A stretch of DNA of 64,000 nucleotides from an uncultured Gemmatimonadaceae bacterium (GTDB taxonomy: Bacteria; Gemmatimonadota; Gemmatimonadetes; Gemmatimonadales; Gemmatimonadaceae), in the NCBI GenBank assembly GCA_963790305.1, contig CAWBOC010000008.1, positions 64,001-128,000 on the forward strand. Direction: 5' to 3'. The notes below the pieces were generated by a model. The model was not told the origin of the DNA. It did no database searches and was given only the letters and a program-made list of their open reading frames with translations. Positions 26,039 to 57,485 of the stretch are shown here, in pieces. Made by a program: the position numbers and the translations under genes. Each line of letters starts with the position of its first letter. Position 1 is the first letter of the stretch.

Positions 26039-26053
26039 TCGGTGAATCCCTGA
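26039..26053. promoter_or_regulatory. Putative regulon box TCGGTG-AAT-CCCTGA
   Basis: Matches TCAGGG-N3-CCCTGA in the divergent LDT/PRTase intergenic region. Confidence 0.55.
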
Positions 26054-26142
26054 TGCGGTGTTTTCCCGACAGGGCATCGGGACGCCGCCGACAGACGCGC
26101 GAGCCCAGTGGCCGCACCATAAGGGTTTCTCGGGGAGTGTGG

Positions 26143-26817
26143 ATGAGATATCGCGATCGCAGGGATGCCGGCAGACGCCTGGCGCTCGTTCTCGGCGCCT
26201 TCGAGGAACGTCTGGACGTCACGGTCCTCGGGTTGCCGCGCGGCGGAGTCCCGGTCGCCTACGAGGTAGCGCGCGCGCTGCACGTGGAGCTCGACATCGT
26301 CGCCGTTCGCAAGCTCGGGCTTCCGGGCCAGCCGGAATTCGCGATGGGCGCGATCGCGCTGGGTGGTATCGTGGTCCTCGACGAGGATCTCATCGCGATG
26401 ATGGGCGTCCCGCCGGCTGCGCTCGAGCGAGTGATCACGGTAGAGCGGGCCGAGGTCGCGCGCCGCGAGCGCTTGTACCGCGGATCCCGTCCACCGCTCG
26501 ACGTGCGGGGCCGCACTCTCATCCTCGTCGATGACGGTCTGGCGACAGGGGCGAGCGTGCAGGCTGCCGTCACCGCGCTCCGCCGTGGAAAGCCCGCGTC
26601 GATCGTGGTGGCCTCCCCCGTCGGCTCGAGGCAAGCCTGTCACGCGATCGCGGACTGTACCGACGGATGTCTGTGCCCCGAGATGCCGGAGCCGTTCTAC
26701 AGCGTCGGGTTGTGGTACGAGGACTTCAGCGACACGAGCGATGCCGGCGTGAAGGAGCTCCTCGCGCAGGCATGGGCGAATGGGAAAAGGCCCCACGCGC
26801 GAGCGGGTCATACCTGA
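26143..26817 (+). CDS. Phosphoribosyltransferase-family protein (Rv0571c/Rv2030c-like)
   Basis: YRDRRDAGRRLA, LPRGGVPVA, LVDDGLATG. Confidence 0.88.
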   Translation: MRYRDRRDAGRRLALVLGAFEERLDVTVLGLPRGGVPVAYEVARALHVELDIVAVRKLGLPGQPEFAMGAIALGGIVVLDEDLIAMMGVPPAALERVITVERAEVARRERLYRGSRPPLDVRGRTLILVDDGLATGASVQAAVTALRRGKPASIVVASPVGSRQACHAIADCTDGCLCPEMPEPFYSVGLWYEDFSDTSDAGVKELLAQAWANGKRPHARAGHT

Positions 26818-26893
26818 CAGACGAGGGCGCGAGTCCATCGCAGGTTGCCGCGAGGTTCTGAACTACTGCTCGAGCCCTGACCATGGAGGAGGC

Positions 26894-27325
26894 ATGCTCG
26901 CGTTCACGGAGCTGCATGAAGTCCAGCGCCGGTTGCAAAGCCGGAAGGTGCTCTCGGTGTTCGTCGACACCTCCGGCCCGGCGGACGGCCCGTCGTGGCG
27001 AGCAAAGCTCGACCGCGCCTTGGCCCGCCTGGACGGGAGCCCACCGCAGTTGCCGAGTGGAGAGCGCACCGCGCGCGAGCTGTGCGTGGCGCACCTTCGG
27101 ACGGCCCTCGAAAATCTTCGGGGCACTCCCGGAGAGCCGGGATGGGTGGCCTACGTGACGACGGACGACGTCGTCGCTGCCTGGCCGCTCTACACTCCTG
27201 TCGAGACCGCCGTGTTCTGGCGGACCGGAATCGTGACGGCGCAGCCGCCGTCGCAGCGACGCTTCGCCCTGCAGCGGTCGACGGTGGCACGCCCGCTCAT
27301 GCGGAATCACGCCTCGCCAGCCTGA
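26894..27325 (+). CDS. Hypothetical protein, possibly related to the N-terminus of eRF1-like (baeRF) proteins
   Basis: RBS GGAGGAGG; VLSVFVD motif; family assignment weak. Confidence 0.5.
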   Translation: MLAFTELHEVQRRLQSRKVLSVFVDTSGPADGPSWRAKLDRALARLDGSPPQLPSGERTARELCVAHLRTALENLRGTPGEPGWVAYVTTDDVVAAWPLYTPVETAVFWRTGIVTAQPPSQRRFALQRSTVARPLMRNHASPA

Positions 27326-27398
27326 GCACCTCCCATTGCGCTCTCGTTCGGGACCGAGGCGGTAGCTAGCTTCGGTAGCGGACCGAGGGCGCAACGGC

Positions 27399-30107: not shown

Positions 30108-30179
30108 AGTCACAAACCTGACGTCTGCAGAAGTTGATCTCTTTACCCTACATTACCGGCACCACTTCTCTCCAAGCCC

Positions 30180-31919: not shown

Positions 31920-32059
31920 GCGTCGGCCAGCACCTGACACGCAGCCGGTCAGGGGTTTTCTACTCGCGAACCGGCATCGCGCCGACAGACTGTGGCGACC
32001 GTGCCGATGATCTTGCGAGCTGTCCGCGCGATAGTCGCGACGGCACCACGGAGGGCGTG

Positions 32060-32725
32060 ATGACGACACTCCGAATTCGCCAAGGCCAGATCCTCCTGAC
32101 GGCCGGTATTCTCTCTTCACTCCTGTACGCCGCCACCGATGTCCTCGGGGGAATGCGATACCCAGGGTACAGCTTCACCTCACAAGCGATCAGCGAGCTG
32201 ATGGCCGTCGGCGCTCCCTCGGAAGGCTTCGTCGATCCCCTGTTCATCCTCTATGGTCTGCTCGTCCTGGCGTTCGGCGCAGGCGTCGTTAGGGAAGGGG
32301 CCGGCCGAAATCGACGGTTGCGAATCGCGGGAGGCCTGCTGATCGGATATGCGGCGCTCGGCTTCACCGGGCCTACGCTCTTCGAGATGCAGCAACGCGG
32401 TGCCGGCACGCCGAATGGCGACACCCCGCACATCGTTCTCACGGCGATCCTCGTACTCCTCCAGCTCCTCGCCATTGGCTTCGCTGCCTTCGCGCTCGGC
32501 AAGCGATTTCGCGTCTATTCGTTCGCGACCCTCCTCATGCTCGTCGCGTTGGGCGTGATGTCCGCCCCCTACGGCGCCCGACTCGCCGCCGGGCAGCCCA
32601 CGCCAGGCTTCGGGATCGTCGAACGCATCCTTATTTACTCCTCGCTGCTGTGGGTGGCGGTGTTTGCGATCGCGCTGCTGCGGCGGCACACACGGCCTCC
32701 TATGCAGCAGGCGCGCTCAATTGAC
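32060..32725 (+). CDS. DUF998-like membrane protein; 3' end uncertain
   Basis: PGYSFTSQAISEL, several TM helices, GIVERI. Confidence 0.7.
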
Positions 32726-33292: not shown

Positions 33293-33530
33293 GTGGATCT
33301 CCCGCTGTCGGTGAAGGAGCAGCTTCCACATCGCAAGCTAGACCCCGGGCGTCGTCCGTCTGTCGGCGAAAGGGCGCCGTGTCGTAGGGGAATGTCAGGC
33401 TCTACTCCGCGCGCGATGCCCGCATGTCAGCAGAACCCCGAGGCGTACTCCGGCAATCACTGATAACACCAGGCGATCAGCGAACGCATCGTGGCAGAGA
33501 ATGGCGACTGATCCCCCACCGGAGGCTCGT

Positions 33531-34022: not shown

Positions 34023-34041
34023 TCGAGACCGAGGAGGAAAC

Positions 34042-34539: not shown

Positions 34540-34606
34540 CGCAGAGCATGGCCACTGCACGGAGTTCCGGGAGAGACCCGGGTGGCGGGGCCACGGACAG
34601 CCGAAC

Positions 34607-35393: not shown

Positions 35394-35402
35394 GGCCTAC
35401 CC

Positions 35403-36503: not shown

Positions 36504-37466
36504 TTACTGTGGCTCGCCGTGGTACGGAGGAATCACGAGCACCGGACAGCGCGCCGCGCGCAACAGCTTCGTCGTCACGCTCCCGATCAGCATCCGTTCG
36601 ACGAGTGTCCGACCGTGCGCACCAGTCACCAACAGATCCGCGCGGTGACTCGCGGCGAACGCGAGCAGCTCCTCGGCGGTCTTCCCCTCCAGAATGACCG
36701 GTCTCACTTCGAGCAGGTCCACCTTCTCGAGCCGCTCCTCGATCTTCTTGAACGCGGCAAGGAGGCCCTGCTTGTAGATCATCGTCGTGCCTTCGTACGC
36801 CTCGCTCGGGATCTCGAGCGGAGGCTTCACGTGCGCCAGCCAGACGTGACCGGGAGGCGTCGTCATGGTGACGGCGGCTCGAGCGGCCCGCACACTGGCG
36901 CGGGAGAAGTCCATCCCCACCACGGCGCGGCGCAGCGGGGCGGTTGCGTCAGACGGAACGGCCAGGATCGGGCACGTTGCGCGTCGCGCCACCTGGGCCG
37001 CGATCTCGTCGCCGAGCAGGCGATCGATCGGCCGGTGCTTTCCTAGACCGAGCACGATGAGTGATGCCTCGATCTCGGTCGCCACCTCCACGACCGACGC
37101 CGCGACCTGACCGACTTTCACCTGAACCTTCCAGGAGTCGGCAGTCCGAAGCGTCTTGCGGACGCGGTCGTGCACCTCCCTCCATCGCATCTCGGTCCGC
37201 GCTACGTCGCTGATCGTCGGCGGAAGGGTCACCATCAACCCGTCTACCGGTGCGTACATGCTTGCAAGCGGCTCGAGCACCGAGATGACGTGCATCGAGA
37301 GCCCATGATCCCTGGCGATCGCTTCGGCGACGCGCAACGGTGCGTTGCTCGTCTCCTGCCCGTCGGTCGCGACGAGAATCGGTCCGGTAAGAACCCAGGG
37401 ATACACCCGCGTCGATGGCTCAGCAGTGACTTCCGATTGCACAAGCTCCGTCGTATTGGTCGTCAT
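36504..37466 (-). CDS. Tandem-domain universal stress protein
   Basis: ILVATDG, VVGMDFS, GAHGRT...IGSVT, CPVLVIP. Confidence 0.92.
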   Translation of the reverse strand: MTTNTTELVQSEVTAEPSTRVYPWVLTGPILVATDGQETSNAPLRVAEAIARDHGLSMHVISVLEPLASMYAPVDGLMVTLPPTISDVARTEMRWREVHDRVRKTLRTADSWKVQVKVGQVAASVVEVATEIEASLIVLGLGKHRPIDRLLGDEIAAQVARRATCPILAVPSDATAPLRRAVVGMDFSRASVRAARAAVTMTTPPGHVWLAHVKPPLEIPSEAYEGTTMIYKQGLLAAFKKIEERLEKVDLLEVRPVILEGKTAEELLAFAASHRADLLVTGAHGRTLVERMLIGSVTTKLLRAARCPVLVIPPYHGEPQ

Positions 37467-37544
37467 GGCACGCTCCGAAAAGGACCTGTGTTCACGGTAT
37501 GGCCGTGGCGACCGCAGATCAGTCAGCCAATGTGCCGAGATCCG

Positions 37545-37559
37545 TAAGACAATCCCTGA
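37545..37559. promoter_or_regulatory. Putative regulon box TAAGAC-AAT-CCCTGA
   Basis: In the divergent USP/PAS-kinase intergenic region. Confidence 0.45.
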
Positions 37560-37596
37560 CGATTGACGCGCATCGCTTACCGCACATGTTTCTGGA

Positions 37597-38796
37597 ATGC
37601 ACACTCCAATTGGTGGCTTTCCCGACGGGCGGGACATCACCGAGCACCGCGCGGCGATGGAGGCGTTGCGCACCTCGGAGTTTCGCTTCGCGTCGATCGT
37701 CGACATTGCCGCCGACGCCATCGTCTCGGTGGACGATGAGCAGGTGATCACCCTCTTCAATCAGGGCGCGGAACGGATTTTCGGGTACACCGCGGCGGAG
37801 GTCATCGGGAAACCGCTCGACCTGCTGCTTCCGACCGACGTGCACGAGATCCATCGCGAGCACATCCGACAGTTCTCGCGAACGGGCGAATCGGCTCGCC
37901 GCATGGGTGAGCGGAGCGAAGTGCGCGGGCGCCGAAAGAACGGCGAGATCTTTCCCGCCGAAGCCTCGATCTCGAAGTTCGATCTCGGTGACCGGCGCGT
38001 GTTCACCGCGGTCTTGCGCGACATCACCGATCGCCGCGCGGCCGAGCAGGAACGCGCTCGCCTGCTCGACGCCGAGCGTTCAGCGCGGGCGGCCGCGGAG
38101 GTGGCGCTGCGTACCCGCGACGAGGTGCTGGCGGTGGTGTCGCACGACCTGCGCAACCCGCTCAGCGTGATCGACATGTGCGCGGCATCGTTGTCGGACA
38201 AGCTCCCGCCTGACGACGCCGCCGCGCACGGCCTCGTCAGGACGATCGAGAGCTCGACCGCCTGGATGAACCGTCTCATCGAGGACCTGCTGGATGTGGC
38301 GCGCGTGGAGGCGGGCCGGCTCGCGCTCGAGCGGAATCCCCAGGACCTGGTGCGGGTGATCAGTGAAGCGACGGTGATGCTCGAGCCACTCATCGCCGAA
38401 AAGTCGCTCACCCTGCGCGAACATCTGCCCGAGTATCTGCCTCGCGCGTACGTCGACGCACGCCGCATCGTCCAGGTCCTCGAGAACCTCGTGTCGAATG
38501 CGGTGAAGCACACCGCTGCCGGCGGTGAAATTCACATTCGCGCCGCGGCCGCTGATGGCGAGGTGCACATCACGGTGCGCGATACCGGGGCCGGCATTCC
38601 GGCGGAAAATCTCCCGCATCTGTTCGACCGATTCTGGCAAGCGCGCGGGGCTCGGCGTGGCGGCGCCGGACTGGGCCTCGCGATCGCGAAGGGAATCGTC
38701 GAAGCCCATGGTGGCCGCATCTGGGTCGAGAGCGAAGTCGGGCTGGGGAGCACGTTCGCCTTCTCCCTTCCGATCGAGAGACGCGGAGACGCATAG
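37597..38796 (+). CDS. PAS-domain sensor histidine kinase with FixL-like PAS
   Basis: FNQGAERIFGY...H...GRRKNGEIFP; SHDLRNP; DTGAGI; GLGLAI. Confidence 0.92.
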   Translation: MHTPIGGFPDGRDITEHRAAMEALRTSEFRFASIVDIAADAIVSVDDEQVITLFNQGAERIFGYTAAEVIGKPLDLLLPTDVHEIHREHIRQFSRTGESARRMGERSEVRGRRKNGEIFPAEASISKFDLGDRRVFTAVLRDITDRRAAEQERARLLDAERSARAAAEVALRTRDEVLAVVSHDLRNPLSVIDMCAASLSDKLPPDDAAAHGLVRTIESSTAWMNRLIEDLLDVARVEAGRLALERNPQDLVRVISEATVMLEPLIAEKSLTLREHLPEYLPRAYVDARRIVQVLENLVSNAVKHTAAGGEIHIRAAAADGEVHITVRDTGAGIPAENLPHLFDRFWQARGARRGGAGLGLAIAKGIVEAHGGRIWVESEVGLGSTFAFSLPIERRGDA

Positions 38797-38938
38797 GCCA
38801 CTGGGCGCACGTCCGGCTTTCGCCGACAAGAGCGCGGCGCCTCCCCGATATTCGGCCGTCTGCTGACGGGCTAGCCTGAGAGCCGAGAGCGGCGAAGTCC
38901 TCGTTTTACGCTGCTCGGTCCCTCGCAGGAGCACCCCA

Positions 38939-39839
38939 ATGCGCGAAATCCTCGACTTGCCGACCGGCGCGTCACCACTAGATGAAAGAGCGTCCTTCAC
39001 CGGCCGCGAACGCGCTGGTCTCCTCATCGCCACTGACGGCCGGCCAGCCGCCGATGGGGCGATCATTGTCGGCCGCTCGATCGCCAACCGCGACGGTGAG
39101 GTGCAGGAGCTCGTGGCGGTCGAGGCACTCGAGCGGCTTCGCGAAGTTGCCGGGCGAGACGATCGTCCAGACCGACCTCCCGCTGCGACTCGCACAGCAG
39201 CGAGCCCGCACGACCAACGTCGGGCGCGACAGCTGGCCGCTGTCGATCGCCTATGGATCACCGAGCAATACCATCGCGGAGCTGGCGGATCACACGCAGC
39301 GACGACTCATCGTCATGGGACTGCATGTTCATCCCCGACGCGATCGGTGGCTGGGACGCGAAACGGCTCTCCAGGTAATGCGGCGGGCCAACTGCCCGGT
39401 GCTCGCGGTGGACAGCAACCGTCGCACGATTCCCCGGCGCACGCTCCTCGCGATCGACTTCAGCCCGTCGAGCATCGCAGCGGCGGCCGAGGCGCTCCGT
39501 GTGATCGGCGATACCGGTCCGGTGTATTTCGCGCACGTCGTTCCGCGCACCGCCGTGCCGTTCGACGCTGGCCCGCAACCCATGTACGAGCCTGCTGTCC
39601 AACTGCGGCTCGCTTTCGTCGAACGCGGTCTCGAAATCCCGCCACACGTTGAAACGCGCATCGTGGTACTGCGCGGCGATCCCGCGACCGAGCTGCTGGC
39701 GTTCGCCGAGCAGGAGGGTATCGAGCTGATCGCGACTGGCAGTCATGGTGTGAGCGCGTTCCGCGGTTCGGTGATCGGGAGTGTGCCCACCGTGTTGGTG
39801 CGGGCGGCTCGGTGCTCGGTGCTGGTGGTGCCGACGTAG
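38939..39839 (+). CDS. Universal stress protein; frameshift near 39130
   Basis: LIATDG in one frame; LAIDFS, GSHG and IGSV in the second. Confidence 0.8.
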
Positions 39840-39942
39840 TCGAGGTGGTCGAGGTCATCGAGGTGATCGAGGTGATCGAGGTGATCGAGGAACGTCGGTT
39901 GCTCTCGATCACCTCGACGTCCTTGCCCACCTCGATCACCTC
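39836..39942. repeat. Palindrome of (GTCGAGGTG)n 9-mers
   Basis: Same family as 8758-8858. Confidence 0.88.
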
Positions 39943-39950
39943 TCTTCCAG

Positions 39951-39965
39951 TCAGGGAAACCCTGA
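39951..39965. promoter_or_regulatory. Regulon box TCAGGG-AAA-CCCTGA upstream of nosZ
   Basis: Perfect 6-3-6 inverted repeat ~90 nt before the nosZ ATG. Confidence 0.7.
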
Positions 39966-40054
39966 GCACAATCGAGGGTCAGTCCCGACTGCTACCGGAT
40001 GCCGAGCCCACGATACTGCCGGCACTCCTTTGTCGACTCTCTCGTGAGGTATCC

Positions 40055-46057: not shown

Positions 46058-46161
46058 GAGGTCGTCGAGGGTGCTCAGGGTGCTCAGGGTGCTCAGGTCA
46101 AAGCGGTTTCCCCCTGAGCACCCTGAGCACCCTGAGCACCCTGAGCACCCTCGACGACCTC
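46058..46161. repeat. Palindrome of (GGGTGCTCA)n 9-mers between convergent genes
   Basis: Read directly. Confidence 0.9.
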
Positions 46162-47285
46162 ACTCCACCACCAGAAACCCGATCGCGCCTTTCTGTCCGT
46201 GCCCGAAGCCGTGATTGACGAACGGGAATTCTCCGGGGATGTCGCAGACGAGCTCGAACACCATCCCCTCCACCGGCGGGCACGGCAAAGGTCTGCGCAC
46301 CTCGGATAGGCACCTCCGGCGGAGCACCCAGATACACCCGATCGAATTGCTCACCGACGACATGGAAGGCGCACTGATGCGTCGGCCCCGCGCTGATCAC
46401 GTACATCCGCACGCGATCGCCCACCTTCACGCGGATCGGCTCGGCCACGTACTGTGACGGTCGACCATTGAACGCCACGTAGTCGGGCATCGTCGACTAG
46501 CATCTCTGACGTAGTCGAAAGCCTGAACTCCGCCGGCCGCGGGACTGAGGTAGTACTCCGACTGCACGAGCACGAATTCCTTCGCCGGCGAGAGAGGCGT
46601 CGGCGGATCGACGATGATCGCGCCATACATGCCGCTGCCGATGTGCATCAGCACGGGCGCCGAGCCGCAGTGATACTTGAATGCGCCCGCGTATTTCGGC
46701 CGAAAGGTGAATGAGACGGATTCTCCGGGAACGACTGACCGAAACGCGGTCTTGGGATCGAGCTGCGCCGCGTGAAAGTCCATCGAGTGCGGGAGCTTTC
46801 CGCGATTCGTCAACGTGAACTCGACGGTGTCGCCAACGCGGCATTGCACCGTCGGGCCAGGGATGTCACTCTCGAACGTCCATGCGGCGACAACGACCTC
46901 GGGCGTGATATGGATGGGAACCTCCGTCGCACTCCAGGCAAGGCGGTGCGTGCGGCTCGACGAGGGCGGAGGCAGCACGGGATCCCAGCGACGATATGCG
47001 ATCGGTTGAACACCCGTGGCCGCGCCCTCGGCGGTGGACGTCGTGTGGCCGCGAACGTCGTGCGTATCGAGACGGCTGTTCGGGTTTTGCAGCGTGATGG
47101 TCGAGGGCTGTTGCGCGCCCGACGTGTCGGACCTCGTGCGATCCTCACCCTTATCACTGCACCCCGCGAGCGCCCCTGCGAGCCGGAATCACCAGCCCCA
47201 GCTTCGACGCGCGCGCCAGAAACGCCCGGCGATCGGTCGATTCGGAGACGACATCGGAGAGCAACGTCAGTGACTCGTTCGGCAT
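46160..47285 (-). CDS. nirK: Copper-containing nitrite reductase-like protein, Tat-exported; several frameshifts
   Basis: DRRAFL Tat motif; HSMDFHAA, YHCG...HIGSGM, FHVVGEQFD, FVNH. Confidence 0.72.
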
Positions 47286-47314
47286 GGGGCGCTCCTGAGT
47301 GGCGAGTGGCGGTG

Positions 47315-47329
47315 TGAGGGAAACCCCTA
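47315..47329. promoter_or_regulatory. Putative regulon box TGAGGG-AAA-CCCCTA
   Basis: In the divergent nirK/MCO intergenic region. Confidence 0.5.
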
Positions 47330-47445
47330 CAGCGATGTCACGCATCTGCCGCGCGGACGGCCCCCGTTACCCGACAGATGTGCGCGGATGCTCTCCATAG
47401 GTTGGGGCAGCAGGAAAACGCCACCGACCTCGAGAGAACAGCACC

Positions 47446-48543
47446 ATGTCGAATACAAAACCGACGATGACTTCCGACGCCGGCCGCACCCGCCGGGATT
47501 TTCTTCGCAAGAGCGTGATGACGGCCATCGCGGCGCCAGTGGCCGTGTCGGCACTGGCAAGCTGCAAAGACAGCGCCGCGCAACGCACCGCCACGGCGAG
47601 CGACAGCGACCATAGCGGTGGCGCCACGGCACCGCATCCGTCCACACCGGCCGCTGCGCCGGTCGATCCACGCGCGCGTGCCGATCAGATGGACGCAATG
47701 CACGAGAAGGGGATCAAGGCATTTCCCGCCAAGACCGAAGGCAAGGGGAATCAGCTTCTCACCCCCCGCGTCGTGAATGGCGTGAAGGTCTTCGACATCA
47801 CCTGCAAGGTCGTGCAATGGGAAGTCGAGCCCGGAAAGAAGGTCGAGGCCTGGACATTCAACGGCGTCGTCCCAGGGCCACAGATTCGCGTCACCGAAGG
47901 CGACCGGATCCGGATGATCGTGAAGAACGAGCTGCCGGAGTCCACGGCCGTCCACTTTCACGGCGTGGAGATGCCTAACGCCATGGATGGCGTACCGTTC
48001 ATCACCCAGCCGCCGATCAAGCCCGGTGAGACGTTCACCTACGAGTTCGTCGTTCCGAATGCCGGCTCGCACATGTACCACTCGCACCACAACGCCGCCA
48101 AACAGGTCGGCATGGGGATGCTCGGCGCCTTCATCGTCGCGCCGAAGCGGGCGCGCGCCATCGAAAAGGTGGACGTGGACTACGTGATGATTCTGAACGA
48201 TGGCTTCCACGGATACACGCTCAACGGCAAAGGCTTTCCCGCCACGGAGCCGGTCGTGGCGAAGCTCGGCCAGAAGGTGCGTCTCCGCTTCATGAACGAG
48301 GGGATGATGATTCACCCCATGCACCTTCATGGGATGCACATGACCGTCATCGACAAGGACGGCTGGGCGCAGCCTGCGCCGTGGAAGTGCGACACGCTCA
48401 ACATCGCGCCGGGCGAGCGGTGGGACGTCATCGTCCACTGCAACAATCCCGGCACCTGGGCCTTCCACTGCCACATCCTCCCGCACGCGGAGTCGGAGCA
48501 TGGGATGTTCGGGATGGTGACGGCGCTCGTGGTCCAGCCGTGA
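47446..48543 (+). CDS. Two-domain multicopper oxidase (small-laccase type B), Tat-exported
   Basis: RRDFLR; HFHG, YHSH, HPMHLH, HCHILPH. Confidence 0.88.
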   Translation: MSNTKPTMTSDAGRTRRDFLRKSVMTAIAAPVAVSALASCKDSAAQRTATASDSDHSGGATAPHPSTPAAAPVDPRARADQMDAMHEKGIKAFPAKTEGKGNQLLTPRVVNGVKVFDITCKVVQWEVEPGKKVEAWTFNGVVPGPQIRVTEGDRIRMIVKNELPESTAVHFHGVEMPNAMDGVPFITQPPIKPGETFTYEFVVPNAGSHMYHSHHNAAKQVGMGMLGAFIVAPKRARAIEKVDVDYVMILNDGFHGYTLNGKGFPATEPVVAKLGQKVRLRFMNEGMMIHPMHLHGMHMTVIDKDGWAQPAPWKCDTLNIAPGERWDVIVHCNNPGTWAFHCHILPHAESEHGMFGMVTALVVQP

Positions 48544-48548
48544 AGGCG

Positions 48549-49625
48549 ATGGGCATTCAGGGGATGACGCTGGTGCTGCCGGTGCGACGGACCACGAATG
48601 GGCGGCGCGCGGCGCACCTCCCACGGCCGGTCGTCGCGTTCCTGCGAGTTCCGCTCGTGCTCAAGCTGGTGGGAGCGAACCTCGTCATCGCGCTGGCGAC
48701 GGTGGTCGCGGCAATGCTGGCGTACGGGACGACACTCGCCGACAGCCGGGTCGTAACGCTCCTCATCGGGGCTTTGATCATCGCCCAGGTGGTCAATGCC
48801 GCGCTCGTGATCATCGCGCTCCGCCCCCTGCATGCTCTCGAGGATGCGGCTGAGCGGATCGTGTCGGGCGATACCAGGGCCCGCGTTCCCTACTCGCCCC
48901 TCGCCGATCGCGACATCGTGCGAACGGGCCGAGCTTTGAACCAGCTGCTCGACGAGCTCATGCAGGAGCGCGATCGTATCCGCGGCATGGCCACGAAGGT
49001 CATCCGGGCGCAGGATGAGGAGCGCGCACGCATCGCTCGCGAGCTGCACGACGCGACCGCCCAGACGATGGCCGCCGTGGTGCTACAGCTCAGCGTCGCC
49101 GAGAGCGCGTGTGATGACGAGGAGCTGGCGACGAAGCTGCACGAGACCCGCGACACGGCCACTGAGGCGCTCGAGGAGATTCGGACGCTGTCGCACACGA
49201 TTTATCCGCGCGTGCTCGAGGACCTCGGCTTGCGCGCCGCGCTCGATTGGCTGGCGCGACGGACGCGGGAGACGAGCAGCCTCGAGGTGGGCGTCACGCT
49301 GCGCGGCGCTGGCAGCGTTCCCGCCACCATCGCATCGGCGCTCTATCGGGTCGCGCAGGAAGCGCTGCTCAATGCGGTGCGACACGCGTCGGCGACGACG
49401 GTCGAGCTTCGGCTCGATGTGGAGCCGGAATACGTTTCGCTGGAGATCGAGGACAATGGCAACGGGTTCGTCGTGCGTGATGGAGAGGCCCGGCGACCCG
49501 GGATGGGTATATTTTCCATGCGGGAGCGCGTGGCACTGGTCGATGGCGTGCTGGACATTGATAGCGCGCCCGGGCGAGGCTGCTGCGTGCGCGCGCATAT
49601 TCCCCTGGACGAACAGAGGCTCTGA
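48549..49625 (+). CDS. Membrane sensor kinase, HisKA_3 (UhpB/NarX-like) with HAMP
   Basis: ERARIARELHD, QEALLN, DNGNGF, GMGIFSM. Confidence 0.9.
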   Translation: MGIQGMTLVLPVRRTTNGRRAAHLPRPVVAFLRVPLVLKLVGANLVIALATVVAAMLAYGTTLADSRVVTLLIGALIIAQVVNAALVIIALRPLHALEDAAERIVSGDTRARVPYSPLADRDIVRTGRALNQLLDELMQERDRIRGMATKVIRAQDEERARIARELHDATAQTMAAVVLQLSVAESACDDEELATKLHETRDTATEALEEIRTLSHTIYPRVLEDLGLRAALDWLARRTRETSSLEVGVTLRGAGSVPATIASALYRVAQEALLNAVRHASATTVELRLDVEPEYVSLEIEDNGNGFVVRDGEARRPGMGIFSMRERVALVDGVLDIDSAPGRGCCVRAHIPLDEQRL

Positions 49626-50320
49626 TGACTGGTGACCTGATTCGCGTCGTGCTCGCCGATGACCACACGATCGTCCGCGCCGGGCTCAAGGCAGTGCTCG
49701 GCAGCGCCAAGGACATCTCCGTCATCGGAGAGGCATCGAACGGCGTCGAGGCGATCGCGCTCGCCGAGCGATTTCATCCCGACGTCATCGTGATGGACCT
49801 GTCGATGGGCGAGATGGATGGGATCCAGGCAACCAAGGCGCTGGCGGCCAAGGGCCCGACCCCGCGCGTGCTCATCCTCACGATGCACGCCGAGGAGGAG
49901 TATCTCGTTCCGCTCCTCGAGGCCGGTGCCGCAGGCTATCTGGTGAAGAGCGCCGCCGATCGCGAGCTCGTGGATGCGGTGCGTGCCGTCGCGCGTGGCG
50001 ATCTGTACGTGCGTCCCGCCGCCGCCCGCGTCCTCGCCAGGGGAATCAAGAAAAAGGACGAGCACGCCGATGAGCGCACGCGCTTCGAGAAGCTGACCGA
50101 CCGCGAGCGTGACGTCCTGCGCCTGATCGCCGAAGGCTACACGGCGCCGGAAATCGGCGAGAAGCTCAACATCAGCCCGAAGACAGTCGACACCTACAAG
50201 CAGCGCATCAACGAGAAGCTGGGCCTGACGCACCGCGCCGACTACGTGAAGTTCGCGCTCAAGCTCGGCATTCTGCACAGCGACGACGCGCCGACGCGGC
50301 CGGCGGGGCCGAGCCACTGA
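49625..50320 (+). CDS. NarL/LuxR family response regulator
   Basis: ADDH, MDLSM receiver; LTDRERDVLRLIAEG...SPKTV HTH. Confidence 0.93.
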   Translation: MTGDLIRVVLADDHTIVRAGLKAVLGSAKDISVIGEASNGVEAIALAERFHPDVIVMDLSMGEMDGIQATKALAAKGPTPRVLILTMHAEEEYLVPLLEAGAAGYLVKSAADRELVDAVRAVARGDLYVRPAAARVLARGIKKKDEHADERTRFEKLTDRERDVLRLIAEGYTAPEIGEKLNISPKTVDTYKQRINEKLGLTHRADYVKFALKLGILHSDDAPTRPAGPSH

Positions 50321-50362
50321 GGACGGCGAGGTAATCGAGGTCGTCGAGGCTGTCGACATCGA

Positions 50363-51569
50363 TTACCTCGACGTACTCATCATCTGCGGCAGCCGAAGCG
50401 TGAACACGGCGCTCGGTTCCTTTACCCACGCCCTCGACCGTGATCTCCCCGCCCATGAGCCGCGCCAGCTGCCGCGCCACGGCGAGCTCGAAGCCAAACC
50501 CTCGACCGCGCGCATGCACCCCGACCGCGATCGGCGGATCGAACAACGACTCGACATCCGAGGCCGCCACCGACGGCCCGGCGTCTCGCACGCGCAACTC
50601 GGCGGCGCCGTTAGGTGCGGACGTCAGCTCCGCGGACACTTGCGACCGCTCGGGGCTCATCGCGATCGCATGAGCCAGGAGGTTGAGCAGAAGCTGTCGC
50701 GTGCATGCGCCATCGAGCTCGACGAACAGCGGCCCCTCGGCGAGCACATCGAGCGAGACGCCGCGCGCCCCTGACTCGGTCTGAAGATCGAGGGCCGACT
50801 TCCGCACGAGGTCGGCGAGATCCACGCGCTCGGCGTGAAGGACGATGCCCCCTTCCTGGATGCGGGTGAGCGTGACGAGATCTTCCACCAGGCGCGCCGA
50901 CTGCGCGGCGCTCCCGGCGATGTGCGTCACCCCCGCGATCCACTCCGCCTGCGACGAGGGGGGCGTGTGCAGCAGCGTCCCCGCCCAGAGCCGCACGCCC
51001 GCCAGCGCGTTTCCCAGCGCGTGGCTCGCGGCAGAGGTGAGACGCTCACTTCCCGCGCGCAATCGCGCCCGCTCGATGGCGACGGCTGCCTGCGTCGCCA
51101 GCACCTCCAGGAGCGCGAGGTCCTCCTCGCTGAACTCGTCGGCGCCGATCTTCTCGGTCACATAGAGATTTCCAAACACGCGCCCCTGCGCCATGACCGG
51201 AACGCCCATGAATGAGCGCATGCGCGGGTGATTGGGCGGCACGCCCGCGGACGCGGGATGCTGGCTGAGATCGCGAAGCCGCAGGGGACGCGCATCGGTG
51301 ATGAGAAGCCCAAGAATCCCCTTTCCCTTCGGAAGAGCGCCGATCCGCGCATGCAGCTCTTTGGGCATCCCCGACGTCAGGAAGTCGGAGAGCCCCGTTC
51401 CTTCGGCATTGATGACGCCGAGCGCCGCATAACGGGCGCCCACGATCTCGCGGGTAACGTCGACGAGGATCTGAAGCACCTGTCCGAGCGACAGCGCCGA
51501 GCCGAGCGCGAGGCCGGCCTCGATGAGCGCGCTTCGGAGGCGTGTGGGATCCTGATCGGCGGAGGGCAC
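50363..51569 (-). CDS. DosS-like GAF sensor kinase with degenerate kinase core; frameshift near 50410
   Basis: ARYAALGV, HPASAGVPPNHPRMRSFMGVPV, GNLYVTEK; H-box SHALGN. Confidence 0.8.
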
Positions 51570-51610
51570 GGCCGGGATTCTATGCGGTTGAGGACCGAAC
51601 GGCGAGACGT

Positions 51611-53434: not shown

Positions 53435-53491
53435 GCAATAACATCCCACTCGTGGTGCGCGACGACCAGTCGGCGCGCCTACGCTATCATA

Positions 53492-53506
53492 TCAGGGATT
53501 CCCTGA
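53492..53506. promoter_or_regulatory. Regulon box TCAGGGATTCCCTGA
   Basis: Perfect 7-1-7 palindrome in the divergent P1B/PPOx intergenic region. Confidence 0.72.
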
Positions 53507-53592
53507 CAAAAACTGCCGACCGTTCCGGTAGCACGGGCAAGGGCTCCGAGTACATGATGACAGCAGGCTCCTAACGCGATGAGGAGGACGTA

Positions 53593-54102
53593 ATGATGAA
53601 CCCGCCCGAGACCGCCCCTGGTTCGGAGATCGAGGTGCCGCTGAGCCCCACCAGATCCTCACGCGCGAGGCCGCCGCGCACGGTGGCGCTGTCGCGTGCA
53701 CAGTGCATGAAGCTGCTGGCGCGAAATCATGTCGGACGGCTCGCGTACACCTTTCGGGATGCGGTCGACATCGTGCCGCTCCACTATGCCTACGAGGATG
53801 AGTGGATCTACGTCCGCACCTCGGGCCCGAAGCTCGCCAAGCTGCGGCATCACCGCTGGGTAGCATTCGAGGTGGACGAGATCTTCGCCATGTACGACTG
53901 GAGCAGCGTCGTAGTGCATGGGGCCGTATATCTGCTCGATCGTTCCAGCGTCGTCACCGAGACGTGGGAGACCGCGGTACGAGTTCTTCAACGCCACTTC
54001 CCCGACGCGTTCACCGATCGGGATCCGGTTCCGTTCCGGACGGCGGTCTTTCGCATTCACGTGGACTCGGTGAGTGGGCGGAGGACGACGCCGGTGCGGT
54101 AG
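53593..54102 (+). CDS. Pyridoxamine 5'-phosphate oxidase-like FMN-binding protein
   Basis: CMKLLARNHVGRLA, VAFEVD, WSSVVVHG. Confidence 0.85.
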   Translation: MMNPPETAPGSEIEVPLSPTRSSRARPPRTVALSRAQCMKLLARNHVGRLAYTFRDAVDIVPLHYAYEDEWIYVRTSGPKLAKLRHHRWVAFEVDEIFAMYDWSSVVVHGAVYLLDRSSVVTETWETAVRVLQRHFPDAFTDRDPVPFRTAVFRIHVDSVSGRRTTPVR

Positions 54103-54107
54103 GAGGT

Positions 54108-54259
54108 AGGGGTCAGGAGTCAGGAGTCAGGGGTCAGGGGTGGTAATGCAAACGGCAGCGCGTAAGCGCTGCCGTTTGCTCATCTGATGAGGGGCCGCTC
54201 GCGCGAAGCGCGGCGGCCCCCTTTCCATCCCTGACCCCTGACTCCTGACTCCTGACCCC
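54108..54259. repeat. Multi-hairpin dispersed element, copy 2
   Basis: Close homolog of 16913-17065. Confidence 0.9.
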
Positions 54260-54263
54260 AAGT

Positions 54264-55652
54264 TCAGAAGCTCACGACGCCCTCGACGACGAACCCGTCG
54301 AACTTCCCGCCATTCCGGATATCAGTCGCCGGGAAGTCATGGTACTTCTGCGCCACCCACTCGCCCTTGAGCATGATGCCCGGCGTCAGGAACCAGCCGG
54401 CACTGAGCTGCCCACGGTGCGTCGTGACATCGGTCGCGATCCCCTGCAGACGGCCCGAGACCTCGTTCCACCGCGCGCCGACGAAGAGCTTGTCGTCCGC
54501 CAGGAAGCGATACACCACCTCGGCCGCATACTGATCGACGGTCCGGAGGGCCGTCTCGTTCGACGCACGACCCTTCGCCTTCTCGACCACGCCGAACAGC
54601 TCGACGTCGCCGTACTTGACGAACGGGTTGATCATGTACGACTTGACCTTGTCGGAGAAATTCGGGTTGATCATGCCCGACCGGAACTGCGCCGACTCCG
54701 TCGCTGTGCTGTTCTCGAGAACGTAGTAGTAGCGCGAGCCGGCGCGGTCGCCTGCATACAACGTGTTGCTGATCGCGCTCTTCTGTTGGAAGGTGGAGCC
54801 GGTGAGGCGCAGGCGCAGCTTGTCGGACATCTGCCGATCAAAGCCGAGCTTGCCAAGGAACGCGAGCGAGCGATCCTTGGGCCGCAGCACGTTGCCGCGC
54901 ACCTCCCCACCGGTGAGCCCGCCCATGGCCATCAGCGGCCCCATGCGGACGTACACCTCACCACCGATCTCCGTCGTGAACGCATCCATGATCAGGTTGC
55001 CGACGAAGGGATTGTACATCGCGTTTCCGTTGTCGGTGCGACGGAAGTGCGCATCCCCGTAGTTGACCTCGAAGTGACCGGCTTTGATGGTCACGAAGGC
55101 CATGAGGAGGTTGAGCAGGTCGTGGTCGATCGGCGACGCATCGATCAGGAGGTAGCCGTCCTTGACCCACGTCTCGTTATGGTGCCGCGACGAGAGATAC
55201 GACGTGAGTGACACGCGGATCCCCTTCGCCAGCTGCGCGTCGAGATACAGGTTGGCGTTGGCATTGTTGAAGCCGCCGCCGATCTCGATCAGCTGATTCT
55301 GGTTCACGCCGCCGACGATGGTCGGCGTGGCCGTGTTCTCGTGATCCAGGCCCTGGTACTGCTGCGTGAACGACGCGCCCCACATCAGCGCGAAGCCCTT
55401 GTAGACGGTGCCGTCATCCTTCGGCGCCTCGAACATGTTGATCCCGCGCTGGTCGACGGGGCGGTAGTTCTGCACCTCGATCTTCTTCTGGGTGCTCAAT
55501 ACCGACTTGAGTGTAGTCTTCTCGACGGTATCGGTCGCCTGTGCCTCCGGCGCCCCCGTCGTGTTGGCGTCGCCGCCGCCTGACTGTGCCATCGTCGGCG
55601 CAGACATGATCGCGAGCCCGAGCAGGGCGGAAAGTGACCGGACGGTTCTCAT
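54264..55652 (-). CDS. Putative outer-membrane beta-barrel protein
   Basis: Signal peptide, alternating beta strands, C-terminal Phe (VEGVVSF). Confidence 0.75.
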   Translation of the reverse strand: MRTVRSLSALLGLAIMSAPTMAQSGGGDANTTGAPEAQATDTVEKTTLKSVLSTQKKIEVQNYRPVDQRGINMFEAPKDDGTVYKGFALMWGASFTQQYQGLDHENTATPTIVGGVNQNQLIEIGGGFNNANANLYLDAQLAKGIRVSLTSYLSSRHHNETWVKDGYLLIDASPIDHDLLNLLMAFVTIKAGHFEVNYGDAHFRRTDNGNAMYNPFVGNLIMDAFTTEIGGEVYVRMGPLMAMGGLTGGEVRGNVLRPKDRSLAFLGKLGFDRQMSDKLRLRLTGSTFQQKSAISNTLYAGDRAGSRYYYVLENSTATESAQFRSGMINPNFSDKVKSYMINPFVKYGDVELFGVVEKAKGRASNETALRTVDQYAAEVVYRFLADDKLFVGARWNEVSGRLQGIATDVTTHRGQLSAGWFLTPGIMLKGEWVAQKYHDFPATDIRNGGKFDGFVVEGVVSF

Positions 55653-55726
55653 CGTGATATCTCCCGAGGTAGGCCGGCCGCGCACGCGGCCGGGATTGCT
55701 GACGCCACGGAACTGCGAGGCGGAGT

Positions 55727-56332
55727 TCATTCTTTGAGGAGCAGGTCGAAGTGGACCTGCACGACGTCACTCACCTTGAGCGTTCCCATCATCAGCGTCG
55801 GCGCCTTCAGGCCGTACTCGCTGAGCGTGATGTCCTTCGTGCCGGTCACCTTCAGCGCGCCGTCTTCGGCGGACGTCGCTTTGGCGTTCATCGTGATCGC
55901 CTTCTTGACGCCGCCGAGGGTGAGATCACCACTGAGCTTCACATTCACGCTTGCGGCAGCGGTCGCCAGCTCGTACGACGTCAGGTCGAACGCGATCTCC
56001 GGAAACTCTGGCCCTTTCAGTGCCTTGAGCATGTGGGAGTTCATCTTGCCGTTCTTGCAGTCGAGCTGTGCCGCCGGAACGCGGACGTTGACGCCGGTGA
56101 CACCCTTTTCCCCGGCGGCGACCAGCGCGACCGCGCCTGGAAGCGCGCTGACGTCGACGGTCAGTGACGTCGCGGTGCACTCGAAATCGCGAACGTTCGA
56201 TGTCCCGCTGACCCACAGCTTGCTCTCCGGCTGCAGCGTCAGCGTTCCCGCGATGGTAGTCCAGGCGATCGTCGCGGGCGCGAGCACCAGCGCGGCGACG
56301 AGAGCGGTGTACGAGGTCCTGCGCATAGTCAT
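55727..56332 (-). CDS. YceI family periplasmic lipid/quinone-binding protein
   Basis: SKLWVSGTSNV, FPEIAF, GDLTLGGV. Confidence 0.85.
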   Translation of the reverse strand: MTMRRTSYTALVAALVLAPATIAWTTIAGTLTLQPESKLWVSGTSNVRDFECTATSLTVDVSALPGAVALVAAGEKGVTGVNVRVPAAQLDCKNGKMNSHMLKALKGPEFPEIAFDLTSYELATAAASVNVKLSGDLTLGGVKKAITMNAKATSAEDGALKVTGTKDITLSEYGLKAPTLMMGTLKVSDVVQVHFDLLLKE

Positions 56333-56450
56333 TCTCCGGTGAGGTGCCAGCCGTCGCGTCTCTCGCGACGTTGACACACGATGCGTCGGGCGGTGCGTTC
56401 GATCAGTCGGAGGAGAGCCGAAGATTCGTGAGGAGGCCGGCCCGGTCTTG

Positions 56451-56465
56451 TGAGGGAAACGCTGA
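56451..56465. promoter_or_regulatory. Putative regulon box TGAGGG-AAA-CGCTGA
   Basis: Upstream of the YceI/beta-barrel pair. Confidence 0.55.
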
Positions 56466-56467
56466 CC

Positions 56468-56608
56468 GAGTAACGAGTGAGGAGTGGGGAGTGGGGAGTG
56501 GGGAGTGAGGAGCAATTCCTGCGGGTGGCTTTCAATTCCAACCGAAGTCCTCACCCCTCACTCCTCACTCCCCACTCCTCACTCCCACTCCCCACTCCTC
56601 ACTCGTTA
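56468..56608. repeat. Palindrome of (GGGGAGT)n 7-mers
   Basis: Read directly. Confidence 0.88.
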
Positions 56609-57363
56609 TAGCACCGCCCACGATCGTGGCTGTGCGACTCGAGCGTCAGCACGGTCGTTCCGAAGACAGGCATCGTGCTCTCGATGCGCACCGGGAGCCT
56701 GCACCGGTCATCGGTGAAGTGGATGCGAACGACTCCTTCGCCCTTGTAGCGACGCGGATCTTTCACGCGCATCTCGACCACGATCGTGGCGAACTCGCCG
56801 GCGTGGGTGGCGAGCCGCTCGCGTCCGACCACGCGCACCGTGGTCGGATTGCGCTCGACGTCGAAGTGTCGGTTGAACTCGAGGGTCGTGTCGCGGTCGA
56901 GCGAGAGCGTACGGAGGAAGTAGAGAAACGAGAGCTCATCGAGCGGCGCGTCGGTCGCGCTCTCGCCCGATCCTGCGCGCCCGGCGTCCCACCGCCGCTC
57001 ATCGGGAAAGAGCTCGACGACCTCGCGGTGGCTCGCCAAGGGGTGACGCTCCTGTTTCGCGTAGCGCAGAGACGTCAGGCGATCATGATCGAGCCATGAA
57101 TCGGTGCGGTCCGTTCCCTGAATGGGCCCGAGGCCCGCTTTCATGACGGAGCGCAGCAGATAGGTCGGTGTGCCGCGAACTACCACCGGTCCTTCGATCC
57201 ACATCGTGCCACGTCCGGATGCGCGCATCTGCGACATGCGAACCCGGTACGTGAGCCGCTCACCGACAGTGAATGGCAGGCCATCGTGGGACTGCGCCGC
57301 GGCCATCGGCGGACGGCCCAATGCGAGTGCCACCAATACGATTCCAGTCAACCCGTTCCGCAT
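56599..57363 (-). CDS. DUF3108-like secreted protein
   Basis: PFTVGERLTY, PLDELSFLY, RLPVRIES. Confidence 0.75.
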   Translation of the reverse strand: MRNGLTGIVLVALALGRPPMAAAQSHDGLPFTVGERLTYRVRMSQMRASGRGTMWIEGPVVVRGTPTYLLRSVMKAGLGPIQGTDRTDSWLDHDRLTSLRYAKQERHPLASHREVVELFPDERRWDAGRAGSGESATDAPLDELSFLYFLRTLSLDRDTTLEFNRHFDVERNPTTVRVVGRERLATHAGEFATIVVEMRVKDPRRYKGEGVVRIHFTDDRCRLPVRIESTMPVFGTTVLTLESHSHDRGRCYNE

Positions 57364-57470
57364 TCGCTACTCGGTATGAGGACGTGCGACTGCGATGAAG
57401 CTGATGAGCGCACGTGGCGACCGCGTGTCAGCGAGAGCCGGAATTTTCCAGGGGATTTCCGCGGGAGGCG

Positions 57471-57485
57471 TCGGGGGATGTCTGA
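57471..57485. promoter_or_regulatory. Putative regulon box TCGGGG-GAT-GTCTGA
   Basis: In the divergent DUF3108/lipoprotein intergenic region. Confidence 0.45.

Follow-up and report, generated by a model that had tools for sequence, protein, structure and literature searches.

Does the short palindrome that recurs between the genes of a nitrous oxide (N2O) reductase island in an uncultured Gemmatimonadaceae bacterium serve as an operator and, if so, which protein binds it and in response to what signal? The DNA in question is a stretch of 64,000 nucleotides (G000:C8:64001-128000, hereafter the window) from a 4.31-Mb assembly with a GC-content of 66% that is 94% complete. An earlier interpretation made from the letters of the window (the sequence-only reading) had singled out a 15-bp palindrome, TCAGGG-N3-CCCTGA, as the candidate operator of a hypoxia and N-oxide regulon encompassing clade II nosZ, nirK and stress genes, and had named a NarL/LuxR-family response regulator encoded at 49625-50320 as its binder. 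The comparisons reported here point to a new operator and an uncharacterised two-component system that would together control N2O reductase in one of the major lineages of soil bacteria.

Motif discovery and controls

The two perfect copies of the palindrome listed by the sequence-only reading, at 39951 and 53492, are present and are the only two in the 4.31-Mb genome. Hexamer frequencies predict 0.2 copies genome-wide and 0.003 per 64 kb, a rarity that is overstated inasmuch as the motif was picked after the copies had been seen. Matches with up to three mismatches number 35 in the window, compared to 29.6 +/- 5.3 in shuffled sequences, and 18 of 100 shuffles reach 35. Judged by mismatches only, the degenerate copies do not exceed what chance would give; one of the listed sites, at 31949, differs from the 15-mer palindrome at more than three positions. 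As mismatch counting does not lift the degenerate copies above chance, we built an independent weight-matrix model.

The model was derived from 70 nosZ loci in other genomes of the family, which provided 65 upstream regions, 62 of them non-redundant. Unconstrained expectation maximization (EM), with no symmetry imposed, returned the palindrome GTCRGGGATTCCCYGA with a log-likelihood of 261, compared to 55-56 for two shuffles. The symmetrised box, GTCRGGGAWTCCCYGAC, spans 17 bp and carries 14 bits (extended form, TGTMRGGRWWWYCCYKACA); it reaches at least 10 bits in 43 of the 62 nosZ promoters and in none of 62 coding controls. For scoring the window the same-genus row was taken out, and the matrix used rests on 61 nosZ promoters of other genera. 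High-scoring sites are concentrated in an island that spans approximately 26,000-60,000 of the window: intergenic sites of at least 14 bits number 6 in 6,836 island bases, compared to 5 in 613,498 intergenic bases elsewhere, counts that carry the error of a gene caller based on a crude dicodon model that miscalls frameshifted genes. The site at 47315, which the caller had placed in a spurious open reading frame (ORF), is additional to the six. At a threshold of 10 bits the island holds nine sites; column-shuffled matrices give a mean of 0.76 and a maximum of 6.

In order to avoid circularity, EM was run a second time on 66 promoters of kinase-regulator operons only, the genus of the window being excluded. 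The result, TGTCGGGGTTTCCCCTACA, matches the motif derived from nosZ. The second matrix scores at least 10 bits in 40 of 65 family nosZ promoters, in 0 of 65 coding controls and in 0 of 48 nosZ promoters of other families; eight of its nine window hits of at least 11 bits are island promoters. Related genomes, to which the sequence-only reading had proposed extending the motif search, return the box from two separate sets of promoters, and conservation upstream of orthologs is found within the Gemmatimonadaceae for nosZ, the regulator operon and stress genes. Boxes at 37544, 38811, 39950, 47314 and 53491 are retained in G077, a genome of the same genus. Since the genomes are related, none of these counts are independent. 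We nevertheless regard it as virtually certain that the box is a real operator.

Eight of the nine sites listed by the sequence-only reading hold when scored by the matrix; 31949 was rejected as a box (3.5 bits), and 38811 and 33448 are additions. The six placed in divergent regions (26039, 33427, 37545, 47315, 53492 and 57471) do lie there, and the first 25 kb, said to lack a full copy, has no intergenic score above 9.1 bits. The 15-bp consensus proved too narrow for a survey: among 151 family genomes it matched in only 22, and its reversed control was almost equally frequent. Two degenerate IUPAC patterns, run on the family and on the phylum, had a high background that was inflated in other classes, and were dropped as support.

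The regulator and its promoters

The genome has four GerE-domain genes, of which only one, a REC-GerE protein of NarL type, is linked to the island. This is the regulator named by the sequence-only reading. It has the phospho-accepting Asp and both domains, and is linked to the sites; it falls below every NCBIfam cut-off (the best models being MctR, 170 bits, and UvrY/GacA, 166 bits), and its recognition helix ends in ISPKTVDTYKQRIN in 76 of 88 matched copies. Homologs occur in 127 of the 151 family genomes and nosZ in 74. The regulator is present in 72 of the 74 nosZ-bearing genomes, compared to 54 of the 76 without nosZ; these tallies include three genomes flagged as unpublished (G007, G034 and G134), on which no other claim rests.

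A box of at least 12 bits precedes the regulator's own operon at 53 of 75 scored loci (80 were taken and five at contig edges left out), compared to 25 of 2,042 control promoters of this genome; regulator loci retrieved with 1.5-kb flanks mostly ended short of the promoter. The same threshold is passed by 52 of 68 nos operons within the family, a figure that is partly the training set, and by 1 of 58 outside it (59 of 63 outside nosZ loci were taken, 58 of them scorable). A natural control is provided by sister family f2, where nosZ occurs in 54 of 97 genomes and a regulator homolog in five. The four best outside nosZ scores (G228, G196, G294 and G277) all fall among the seven genomes with a homolog, and in G228 (family f9) an 18-bit box lies between a 53%-identical homolog and a cytochrome c-nosZ operon. 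Homologs with the helix SPKTVDTYR in families f4, f6, f7 and f8 have a 13-20-bit box at or beside the operon in G295, G174, G277, G255 and G229 (in G174 and G229 at one of two homolog copies), while G303, with the same helix, has no box within the locus. Homologs with STKTVDAYK (G193, G167) have no operon-promoter box above 10 bits, and the seven universal stress protein (USP) loci of the regulator-less genomes G127, G008, G062 and G068 have no intergenic box of at least 11 bits. Own operon, nos operons and co-occurrence all point to the same protein, and it is very probable that the regulator at 49625-50320 binds the box.

The arrangement of boxes within promoters suggests what binding may achieve. 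In nosZ and own-operon promoters secondary boxes peak at +22/23 and +44/45 bp from the main box, and arrays contain up to three boxes 22 bp apart; the true unit is a 17-19-bp element in 22-bp-phased arrays, beyond the 15-bp palindrome first described. Of 100 TAnnnT hexamers in 164 oriented promoters, 62 begin at a distance of 53-55 or 75-77 bp from the strongest box, measured from its centre, compared to 8 expected, at peaks that were chosen after the fact. If the hexamer is taken as the -10 element, then the strong box would be centred close to -66 or -88 and the final weak box at about -44. A centre at approximately -44 is the position of class II activators. One report places the DosR region at hspX at -43.5 (PMC13486717). 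Within the window, phased TAnnnT hexamers run from 37544 and 38811 towards the two USP genes and from 47314 towards the operon of multicopper oxidase, kinase and regulator, the last arrangement being consistent with an autoregulatory promoter; at 33426, 53491, 56450 and 57470 only CAnnnT is in phase. Where a nos operon is led by a Rrf2, cupredoxin, cytochrome or oxidase gene the box relocates to that first gene. We think it quite probable that phased boxes activate transcription. One group of relatives has the box centre only 12-15 bp ahead of the divergent PAS kinase's start codon (12 of the 41 kinase rows listed), a position that suggests repression.

Signal, mechanism and alternatives

Three kinases of the island bear on the signal. 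The partner kinase, whose cluster has 85 members beside 86 regulators, has no PAS domain and no conserved heme or Fe-S ligand (three Cys, none invariant); its intramembrane K42 and N47 are invariant, and a search of the ESM Atlas with its N-terminus returned only generic HAMP clusters. The second is a FixL-like PAS kinase. Every named PDB hit of its PAS part is a FixL or DosP heme-PAS domain (best, 7e-18), and it keeps the proximal His on sequence comparison, heme binding being predicted. Of 80 regulator loci, 48 contain a homolog. G277 and G255 encode, immediately upstream of the regulator and beside a copy of the membrane kinase, a HisKA_3 kinase with a FixL-like PAS domain fused to it. Plasmids of Paraburkholderia and Cupriavidus have this fusion too, in USP-rich loci where it accompanies regulators of 45% identity. 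The third kinase has a GAF domain that matches DosT/DevS GAF structures (E 3e-36 to 3e-33); it occurs with the regulator in just 2 of the 80 loci and is a frequent neighbor of nosZ in f2. Because heme-type sensor kinases accompany or fuse with the system, we favor low oxygen, with moderate confidence, as the likeliest signal. The sensing of N-oxides put forward by the sequence-only reading finds no support in the kinases; hypoxia we infer solely from the heme-type sensor domains and gene content. At six loci (L075, L077, L084, L090, L099 and L113) genes for an Hpt protein and a single-domain receiver come after the PAS kinase and may form a phosphorelay that links sensor and regulator.

The explanation that we consider likely, on the sequence comparisons above, combines these elements. 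Phosphorylated regulator dimers would load first on the strong distal box (around -66 or -88), fill the weaker boxes down to about -44 and then recruit sigma-70 RNA polymerase. The kinase-regulator operon would amplify itself, and a box on the start of the divergent PAS-kinase gene may repress that gene. The FixL-like heme-PAS kinase would sense falling oxygen and signal to the regulator via, or together with, the membrane HisKA_3 kinase; this part is less well supported. The output would be N2O reductase and a persistence kit resembling those of DosR and the lxa locus (USPs, Acg-like nitroreductase, pyridoxamine-oxidase-like flavoprotein, CBS protein, YceI and copper proteins), without an FNR/DNR step. 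A more elaborate version, which we put forward only tentatively, is an undescribed multi-kinase oxygen circuit that drives N2O respiration in Gemmatimonadetes: an ancestral heme-PAS/HisKA_3 kinase, still fused in G277 and G255, would have split in the Gemmatimonadaceae, so that a free FixL-like sensor and a sensor-less membrane kinase jointly set the phosphorylation of one regulator, with the number and strength of the 22-bp-phased boxes grading the oxygen threshold of each promoter and nosZ captured into the persistence regulon. If true, the capture of nosZ would explain why obligate aerobes reduce N2O as conditions shift between oxic and anoxic, and the sister family would have wired the same nos genes to other regulators.

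It is also conceivable, though unlikely, that the same regulator binds the box and that the signal is not oxygen but the state of the envelope, copper, quinone redox or energy, the genes forming a growth-arrest or copper-enzyme programme. The co-transcribed kinase, with two membrane helices, HAMP, K42/N47 and no heme or Fe-S ligand, suits such a signal, and copper proteins or transporters are numerous among the targets (NosZ, multicopper oxidase, cupredoxin, P1B ATPase), although the P1B ATPase carries a box in only 3 of 17 cases. Gemmatimonas aurantiaca T-27 is described as expressing nosZ under O2 and as reducing N2O faster as O2 falls (PMC10100939), behaviour that would fit a microoxic rather than an anoxic switch and would fit a non-oxygen signal too. 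What tips the balance towards oxygen is the heme-type PAS kinase in 48 of 80 loci with its HisKA_3 fusion in G277 and G255, together with the DosS-like GAF kinase in the window and the overlap of the targets with the hypoxia-induced lxa, DosR and OsdR sets.

Several observations weigh against the proposal that the regulator binds the box and reports on oxygen. Genome G106 (95% complete) has at least eight boxes of 12 bits or more in its nos/USP island and neither regulator nor partner kinase in the assembly, which the fact that the island reaches a contig end may or may not explain. G065 (74% complete) has nosZ and no regulator. In G180, whose regulator is 66% identical, the nos cluster is of f2 type and includes a Crp/Fnr-type gene, nosZ lacks a box, and the boxes near the regulator reach only 9-12 bits; G255 and G306 have a homolog yet no box at nosZ. 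The strict box test is failed by 22 of 75 regulator operons, about eight of which have a box one gene further up, and operon copies that follow cydAB-type genes have none there. Genome-wide pattern counts differ little with the regulator present or absent (7.9 vs 5.5 per genome; 4.8 vs 4.4 in another count). The partner kinase is without an oxygen-sensing domain, and the PAS kinase of the window belongs to the HisKA type, which usually does not serve NarL-type regulators, FixLJ excepted. Loci in which the kinase-regulator pair has no box directly upstream (0.3-6.7 bits) are L085, L086, L088, L092, L097, L057 and L132; the pair follows cytochrome bd oxidase genes in L086, L088 and L097, and L085 and L088 are titled as G. 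aurantiaca metagenome-assembled genomes.

Some of these observations would be expected if an unlinked factor, be it Rrf2, CRP/FNR-type or other, read the box and the two-component operon were a target only. The boxes of G106 and the weak separation in genome-wide counts fit this possibility; Rrf2 genes often adjoin nosZ, and an upstream box marks an operon as target, not as source of the binder. However, Rrf2 genes adjoin nosZ just as often in the sister family, which lacks the box there; the single Rrf2 gene of this genome lies split on another contig; and relatives have a separate AT-rich box beside the GC-rich one. Rrf2 as binder was rejected on this distribution. The box is, furthermore, unlike TTGA-N6-TCAA, tracks the regulator into five other families and resembles the sites of UvrY and FixJ, and we judge an unlinked binder to be improbable.

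That the boxes are chance matches or an intergenic repeat of no regulatory role, as degenerate 15-bp matches within the range of shuffles and island repeats with TCAGG words (e.g., 54110-54260) might suggest, is an idea left with a negligible chance by their conservation at unalignable ortholog promoters in dozens of genera, their absence from coding controls and sister-family promoters, and the fixed spacing to the -10 element.

Regulon, setting and known systems

To define the content of the regulon, 120 loci (80 around the regulator and 40 around nosZ) were surveyed for boxes of at least 12 bits upstream of each gene group. Boxes precede the partner kinase in 35 of 60 cases with an intergenic gap, nosZ in 25 of 41 and the multicopper oxidase in 19 of 28. 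They are found before DUF3108 (8/8), Acg-like nitroreductase (7/8), pyridoxal-phosphate-dependent decarboxylase (6/7), Rrf2 (6/8), YceI (14/19), CBS (4/6) and MgtC/DUF4010 (7/13) genes, two USP groups (12/32 and 8/18), and pyridoxamine-oxidase-like (8/20), cupredoxin (5/17) and P1B ATPase (3/17) genes. Neighboring ubiE (0/10), aldehyde dehydrogenase (0/8), DUF255 (0/9) and nucleotidyltransferase (0/9) genes have no box upstream. The scope of control envisaged by the sequence-only reading is supported for clade II nosZ and the stress genes and finds no support for nirK, towards which nothing is phased, the -10 element at 47314 facing only the oxidase-kinase-regulator operon. Control of nrfHA finds no support either, the best score upstream of nrfH being 2.5 bits. 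Control without FNR or DNR is supported: no FNR box (TTGAT-N4-ATCAA, with at most one mismatch) occurs after position 25000 of the window, and the four CRP-family genes of the genome all lack the N-terminal Cys cluster of an FNR-type protein. At locus L383 (G106:C18:1-20000) boxes of 16 and 21 bits precede genes that by eye resemble cytochrome c oxidase subunits II and I (ba3-type); these would add a terminal oxidase to the regulon.

In order, the island comprises phosphoribosyltransferase-like, cation P-type ATPase, SulP and CBS-protein genes, the two USPs and the PAS kinase; the clade II nos cluster, cupredoxin, nirK-like gene, multicopper oxidase, membrane kinase and NarL/LuxR regulator; and the GAF kinase, P1B ATPase, pyridoxamine-oxidase-like gene, YceI, DUF3108 and nrfHA, followed by ccm genes (Table 1).

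Table 1. Boxes and genes of the island, with positions in the window and scores from the nosZ-derived matrix.
Feature	Coordinates	Strand	15-bp site from	Box and score	Details
Box before nosZ	39950..39966		39951	GTCAGGGAAACCCTGAG, 18.2 bits	perfect 15-bp core 39951-39965; weak second box at 39973; -10-like TACTGC 56 bp from centre; counterpart in G077 15 bits, with TACTGT
Box between P1B ATPase (-) and pyridoxamine-oxidase-like gene (+)	53491..53507		53492	ATCAGGGATTCCCTGAC, 21.7 bits	top score in genome; 22 bits in G077
Box between nirK (-) and multicopper oxidase-kinase-regulator operon (+)	47314..47330		47315	GTGAGGGAAACCCCTAC, 18.3 bits	weak boxes at 47337 and 47359; -10 TAGGTT 76 bp on; 19 bits in G077
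Box between USP (-) and heme-PAS kinase (+)	37544..37560		37545	GTAAGACAATCCCTGAC, 17.1 bits	-10 TACCGT 53 bp towards USP; identical in G077
Box before second USP	38811..38827		38812	GTCCGGCTTTCGCCGAC, 13.5 bits	-10 TAGCCT 53 bp on; 17 bits in G077
Box between L,D-transpeptidase (-) and phosphoribosyltransferase-like gene (+)	26038..26054		26039	GTCGGTGAATCCCTGAT, 18.0 bits	weaker boxes at 26016 (4.6 bits) and 25994 (2.1 bits); regulated side not evident
Two boxes 22 bp apart, CBS-domain gene (-) / lipoprotein gene (+)	33426..33464		33427, 33449	33426, 11.1 bits; 33448, 9.9 bits	below 11 bits with second matrix
Box before YceI / outer-membrane protein operon (-)	56450..56466		56451	GTGAGGGAAACGCTGAC, 17.8 bits	weak box at 56406 (3.3 bits)
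Box before DUF3108 (-)	57470..57486		57471	GTCGGGGGATGTCTGAC, 14.3 bits	weak boxes at 57448 (0.7 bits) and 57427 (5.2 bits)
NarL/LuxR-family response regulator, proposed binder	49625..50320	+			Pfam REC and GerE; recognition helix SPKTVDTYKQRI from residue 184
Partner kinase	48540..49625	+			two membrane helices, short loop, HAMP, HisKA_3
FixL-like PAS kinase (HisKA type), proposed oxygen sensor	37597..38796	+			His86 aligns with FixL heme ligand
Kinase with DosS/DosT-like GAF domain	50259..51569	-			3' end overlaps regulator, probably frameshifted; PNHPRM motif kept
Clade II nosZ	40055..41981 (last aligned base)	+			at least 5 frame segments in this assembly
nos accessory genes and cupredoxin	after nosZ; accessory genes to 45575				
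nirK-like gene	46098..47285	-			frameshifted; shares 47314 box, no phased -10 on nirK side
Two-domain multicopper oxidase	47446..48543	+			first gene of oxidase-kinase-regulator operon
Universal stress protein	36504..37466	-			predicted activated
Universal stress protein (second)	38982..39839	+			predicted activated
Pyridoxamine 5'-phosphate oxidase-like flavoprotein	53593..54102	+			predicted member
DUF3108, YceI, unnamed outer-membrane-type protein	54264..57363	-			predicted members

In this assembly nosZ, nirK and the ccm genes (61000-64000) are frameshifted, whereas nosZ and nirK are intact in G077, where the nosZ homolog scores 933 bits on TIGR04246 and the nirK homolog 173 bits on TIGR02376, below the cut-off of 296. 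Alignment to G077 opens 59 gaps over 5.6 kb, compared to 3 over 2.4 kb at the two-component genes; the frameshifts may reflect either assembly error or gene decay. Low-complexity intergenic repeats lie at 39830-39940, 54090-54260, 56475-56590 and 58070-58160. They comprise GAGGTGATC, GGAGTCA/TGACTCC around a hairpin, GAGTGGG/CTCACTC and GAGGCGCTA; some of them contain TCAGG words, at scores below 7 bits. Outside the window, 22 kb before it, a 20.8-bit box (G000:C8:41627-41643, with a weak box 44 bp on) precedes two genes, one for a small protein with cysteines (FGIDACCGG) and one for a membrane protein with relatives that adjoin nos clusters in other genomes; these genes are probably a further member of the regulon. 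A 17.1-bit box stands before a ccmH-like gene (G000:C8:130491) and a 20.0-bit match (G000:C13:160158), which falls within a short ORF, is located 161 bp upstream of a tatA-like gene, both without a phased TAnnnT.

The nosZ upstream regions of L135, L160 and L167 have AT-rich palindromes such as GATGCA-N-TGCATC downstream of the GC-rich boxes, and at L167 there is a divergent Rrf2 gene with RirA and NsrR as best models (below cut-off). These palindromes are NsrR-like and probably represent a second, nitric-oxide-sensing layer on nosZ. Around the same nos cluster in the sister family (L282-L340) the regulatory wiring differs: its neighbors are an Rrf2 gene, a DosS-like GAF kinase paired with an OmpR-like regulator, or a gene of Crp/Fnr type.

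The records of the 80 closest regulator loci are titled Gemmatimonadaceae, Gemmatimonadales or Gemmatimonadota. Gemmatimonadota nosZ genes are reported to rank with the most abundant ones in soils, and cultured members are believed to rely on N2O for survival in temporary anoxia (PMC10581226), while the regulation of clade II nosZ is described as little studied and tied so far to Crp/Fnr proteins (PMC11539149). Searches of an open-licence library, at the level of titles and abstract openings, yielded no description of the box or the system, and PMC8510549 mentions neither nosZ nor Gemmatimonadota. What the present analysis yields for this N2O sink is a candidate regulator, a site consensus, predicted positions of promoters and a possible sensor, all of which could be tested in a cultured strain: on plasmid 1 of Gemmatirosa kalamazoonensis KBS708 (NZ_CP007129.1) DUF3108, YceI, Rrf2 and nosZ come immediately after the kinase-regulator pair, and the boxes score 14.6, 17.1 and 17.2 bits (the plasmid may duplicate a family locus and is not counted as independent). 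Applied to soil metagenomes, the matrix moreover gives a sequence-based prediction of the nos clusters that obey this signal.

How does the system compare to those already known? In Wolinella and Nitrosophilus the same class of target enzyme is described as controlled by one-component Crp/Fnr proteins of the Nss type through TTGA-N6-TCAA (PMC11539149), a motif not found at the promoters here. Only coding-region hits of 10-12 bits were obtained from plasmid loci with clade II nosZ in Hymenobacter and Deinococcus and from a regulator locus of Rhodococcus. Staphylococcal NreBC is, as reported, an FNR-independent NarL-type regulator of anaerobic N-oxide respiration with a GC-rich palindrome (PMC8139620); NreB, however, is an Fe-S PAS kinase, a feature that no kinase here shows. 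The lxa locus of Burkholderia cenocepacia is similar in gene content, with USPs, nitroreductase, sulphate transporter, cation ATPase and two-component pairs, and differs in its reported TGA-N6-TCA (Anr/FNR-like) motif (PMC3721108). The closest plasmid homologs of the regulator (45-46%) lie in lxa-like loci, on plasmids of Paraburkholderia phytofirmans OLGA172 (L407:749-9387) and Cupriavidus metallidurans WXY105 (L408:3697-11491), with USPs, a nitroreductase or BON protein, a PAS-HisKA_3 kinase and a NarL-type regulator; the two Burkholderiales loci checked have five and two FNR boxes and no box of the present type of at least 10 bits.

In its output the system resembles the dormancy regulons of DosR and OsdR, for which published accounts were used (PMC13486717, PMC5069765 and PMC10034137). 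DosR/DevR of Mycobacterium and OsdR of Streptomyces coelicolor share with it an autoregulated NarL-type regulator, USPs, an Acg-like nitroreductase and a pyridoxamine-oxidase-like gene, and the marks of a DosR-like regulon (USPs, Acg/nitroreductase, flavoprotein and autoregulation) are all found here. Differences lie in the machinery. DevR is only the fifth PDB hit of the regulator, after VraR/LiaR-type proteins and NarL, and where DosR reads K179-T180-x-K182-N183-Y184 the system here has K-T-V-D-T-Y, keeping the first K and replacing the contact residues K182 and N183 by D and T. DosR has a heme-GAF HisKA_3 partner, whereas here the partner is a membrane HAMP-HisKA_3 kinase and N2O reductase is a target too. 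The likeness of the box to that of DosR, drawn by the sequence-only reading, does not survive: the dormancy box is GGG-N8-CCC (GGGAC...GTCCC, or AGGGCCGATCGGCCCT, the OsdR consensus) and the present one GGG-N3-CCC.

The operator itself finds closer counterparts elsewhere. UvrY is reported to bind TGTAAG-N6-CTTACA (PMC4682653) and Sinorhizobium meliloti FixJ to bind TAAGTAATTTCCCTTA (PMC4999443). UvrY/SirA/GacA is the second-best family model (166 bits, below the cut-off of 280) and the outer half-site TGT(A/C)(A/G)G is shared; differences are a spacer of 7 rather than 6, no BarA-type hybrid partner, and targets that are protein genes, csrA not being found in this 94%-complete genome. With FixLJ of rhizobia and Caulobacter the system shares a heme-PAS kinase, a LuxR-type regulator and a FixJ site with a TAAG...TTTCCC...CTTA pattern. 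It departs from FixLJ in its regulator (80 bits on the FixJ model, cut-off 255), its HisKA_3 operon partner and its TAAG-CTTA spacing of 7 rather than 8, and in that it appears to reach nosZ directly, not through FixK. In sum, the box appears closer to the sites of UvrY and FixJ than to that of DosR, to which its likeness is superficial, while the system as a whole would work like DosR without being a member of that family.

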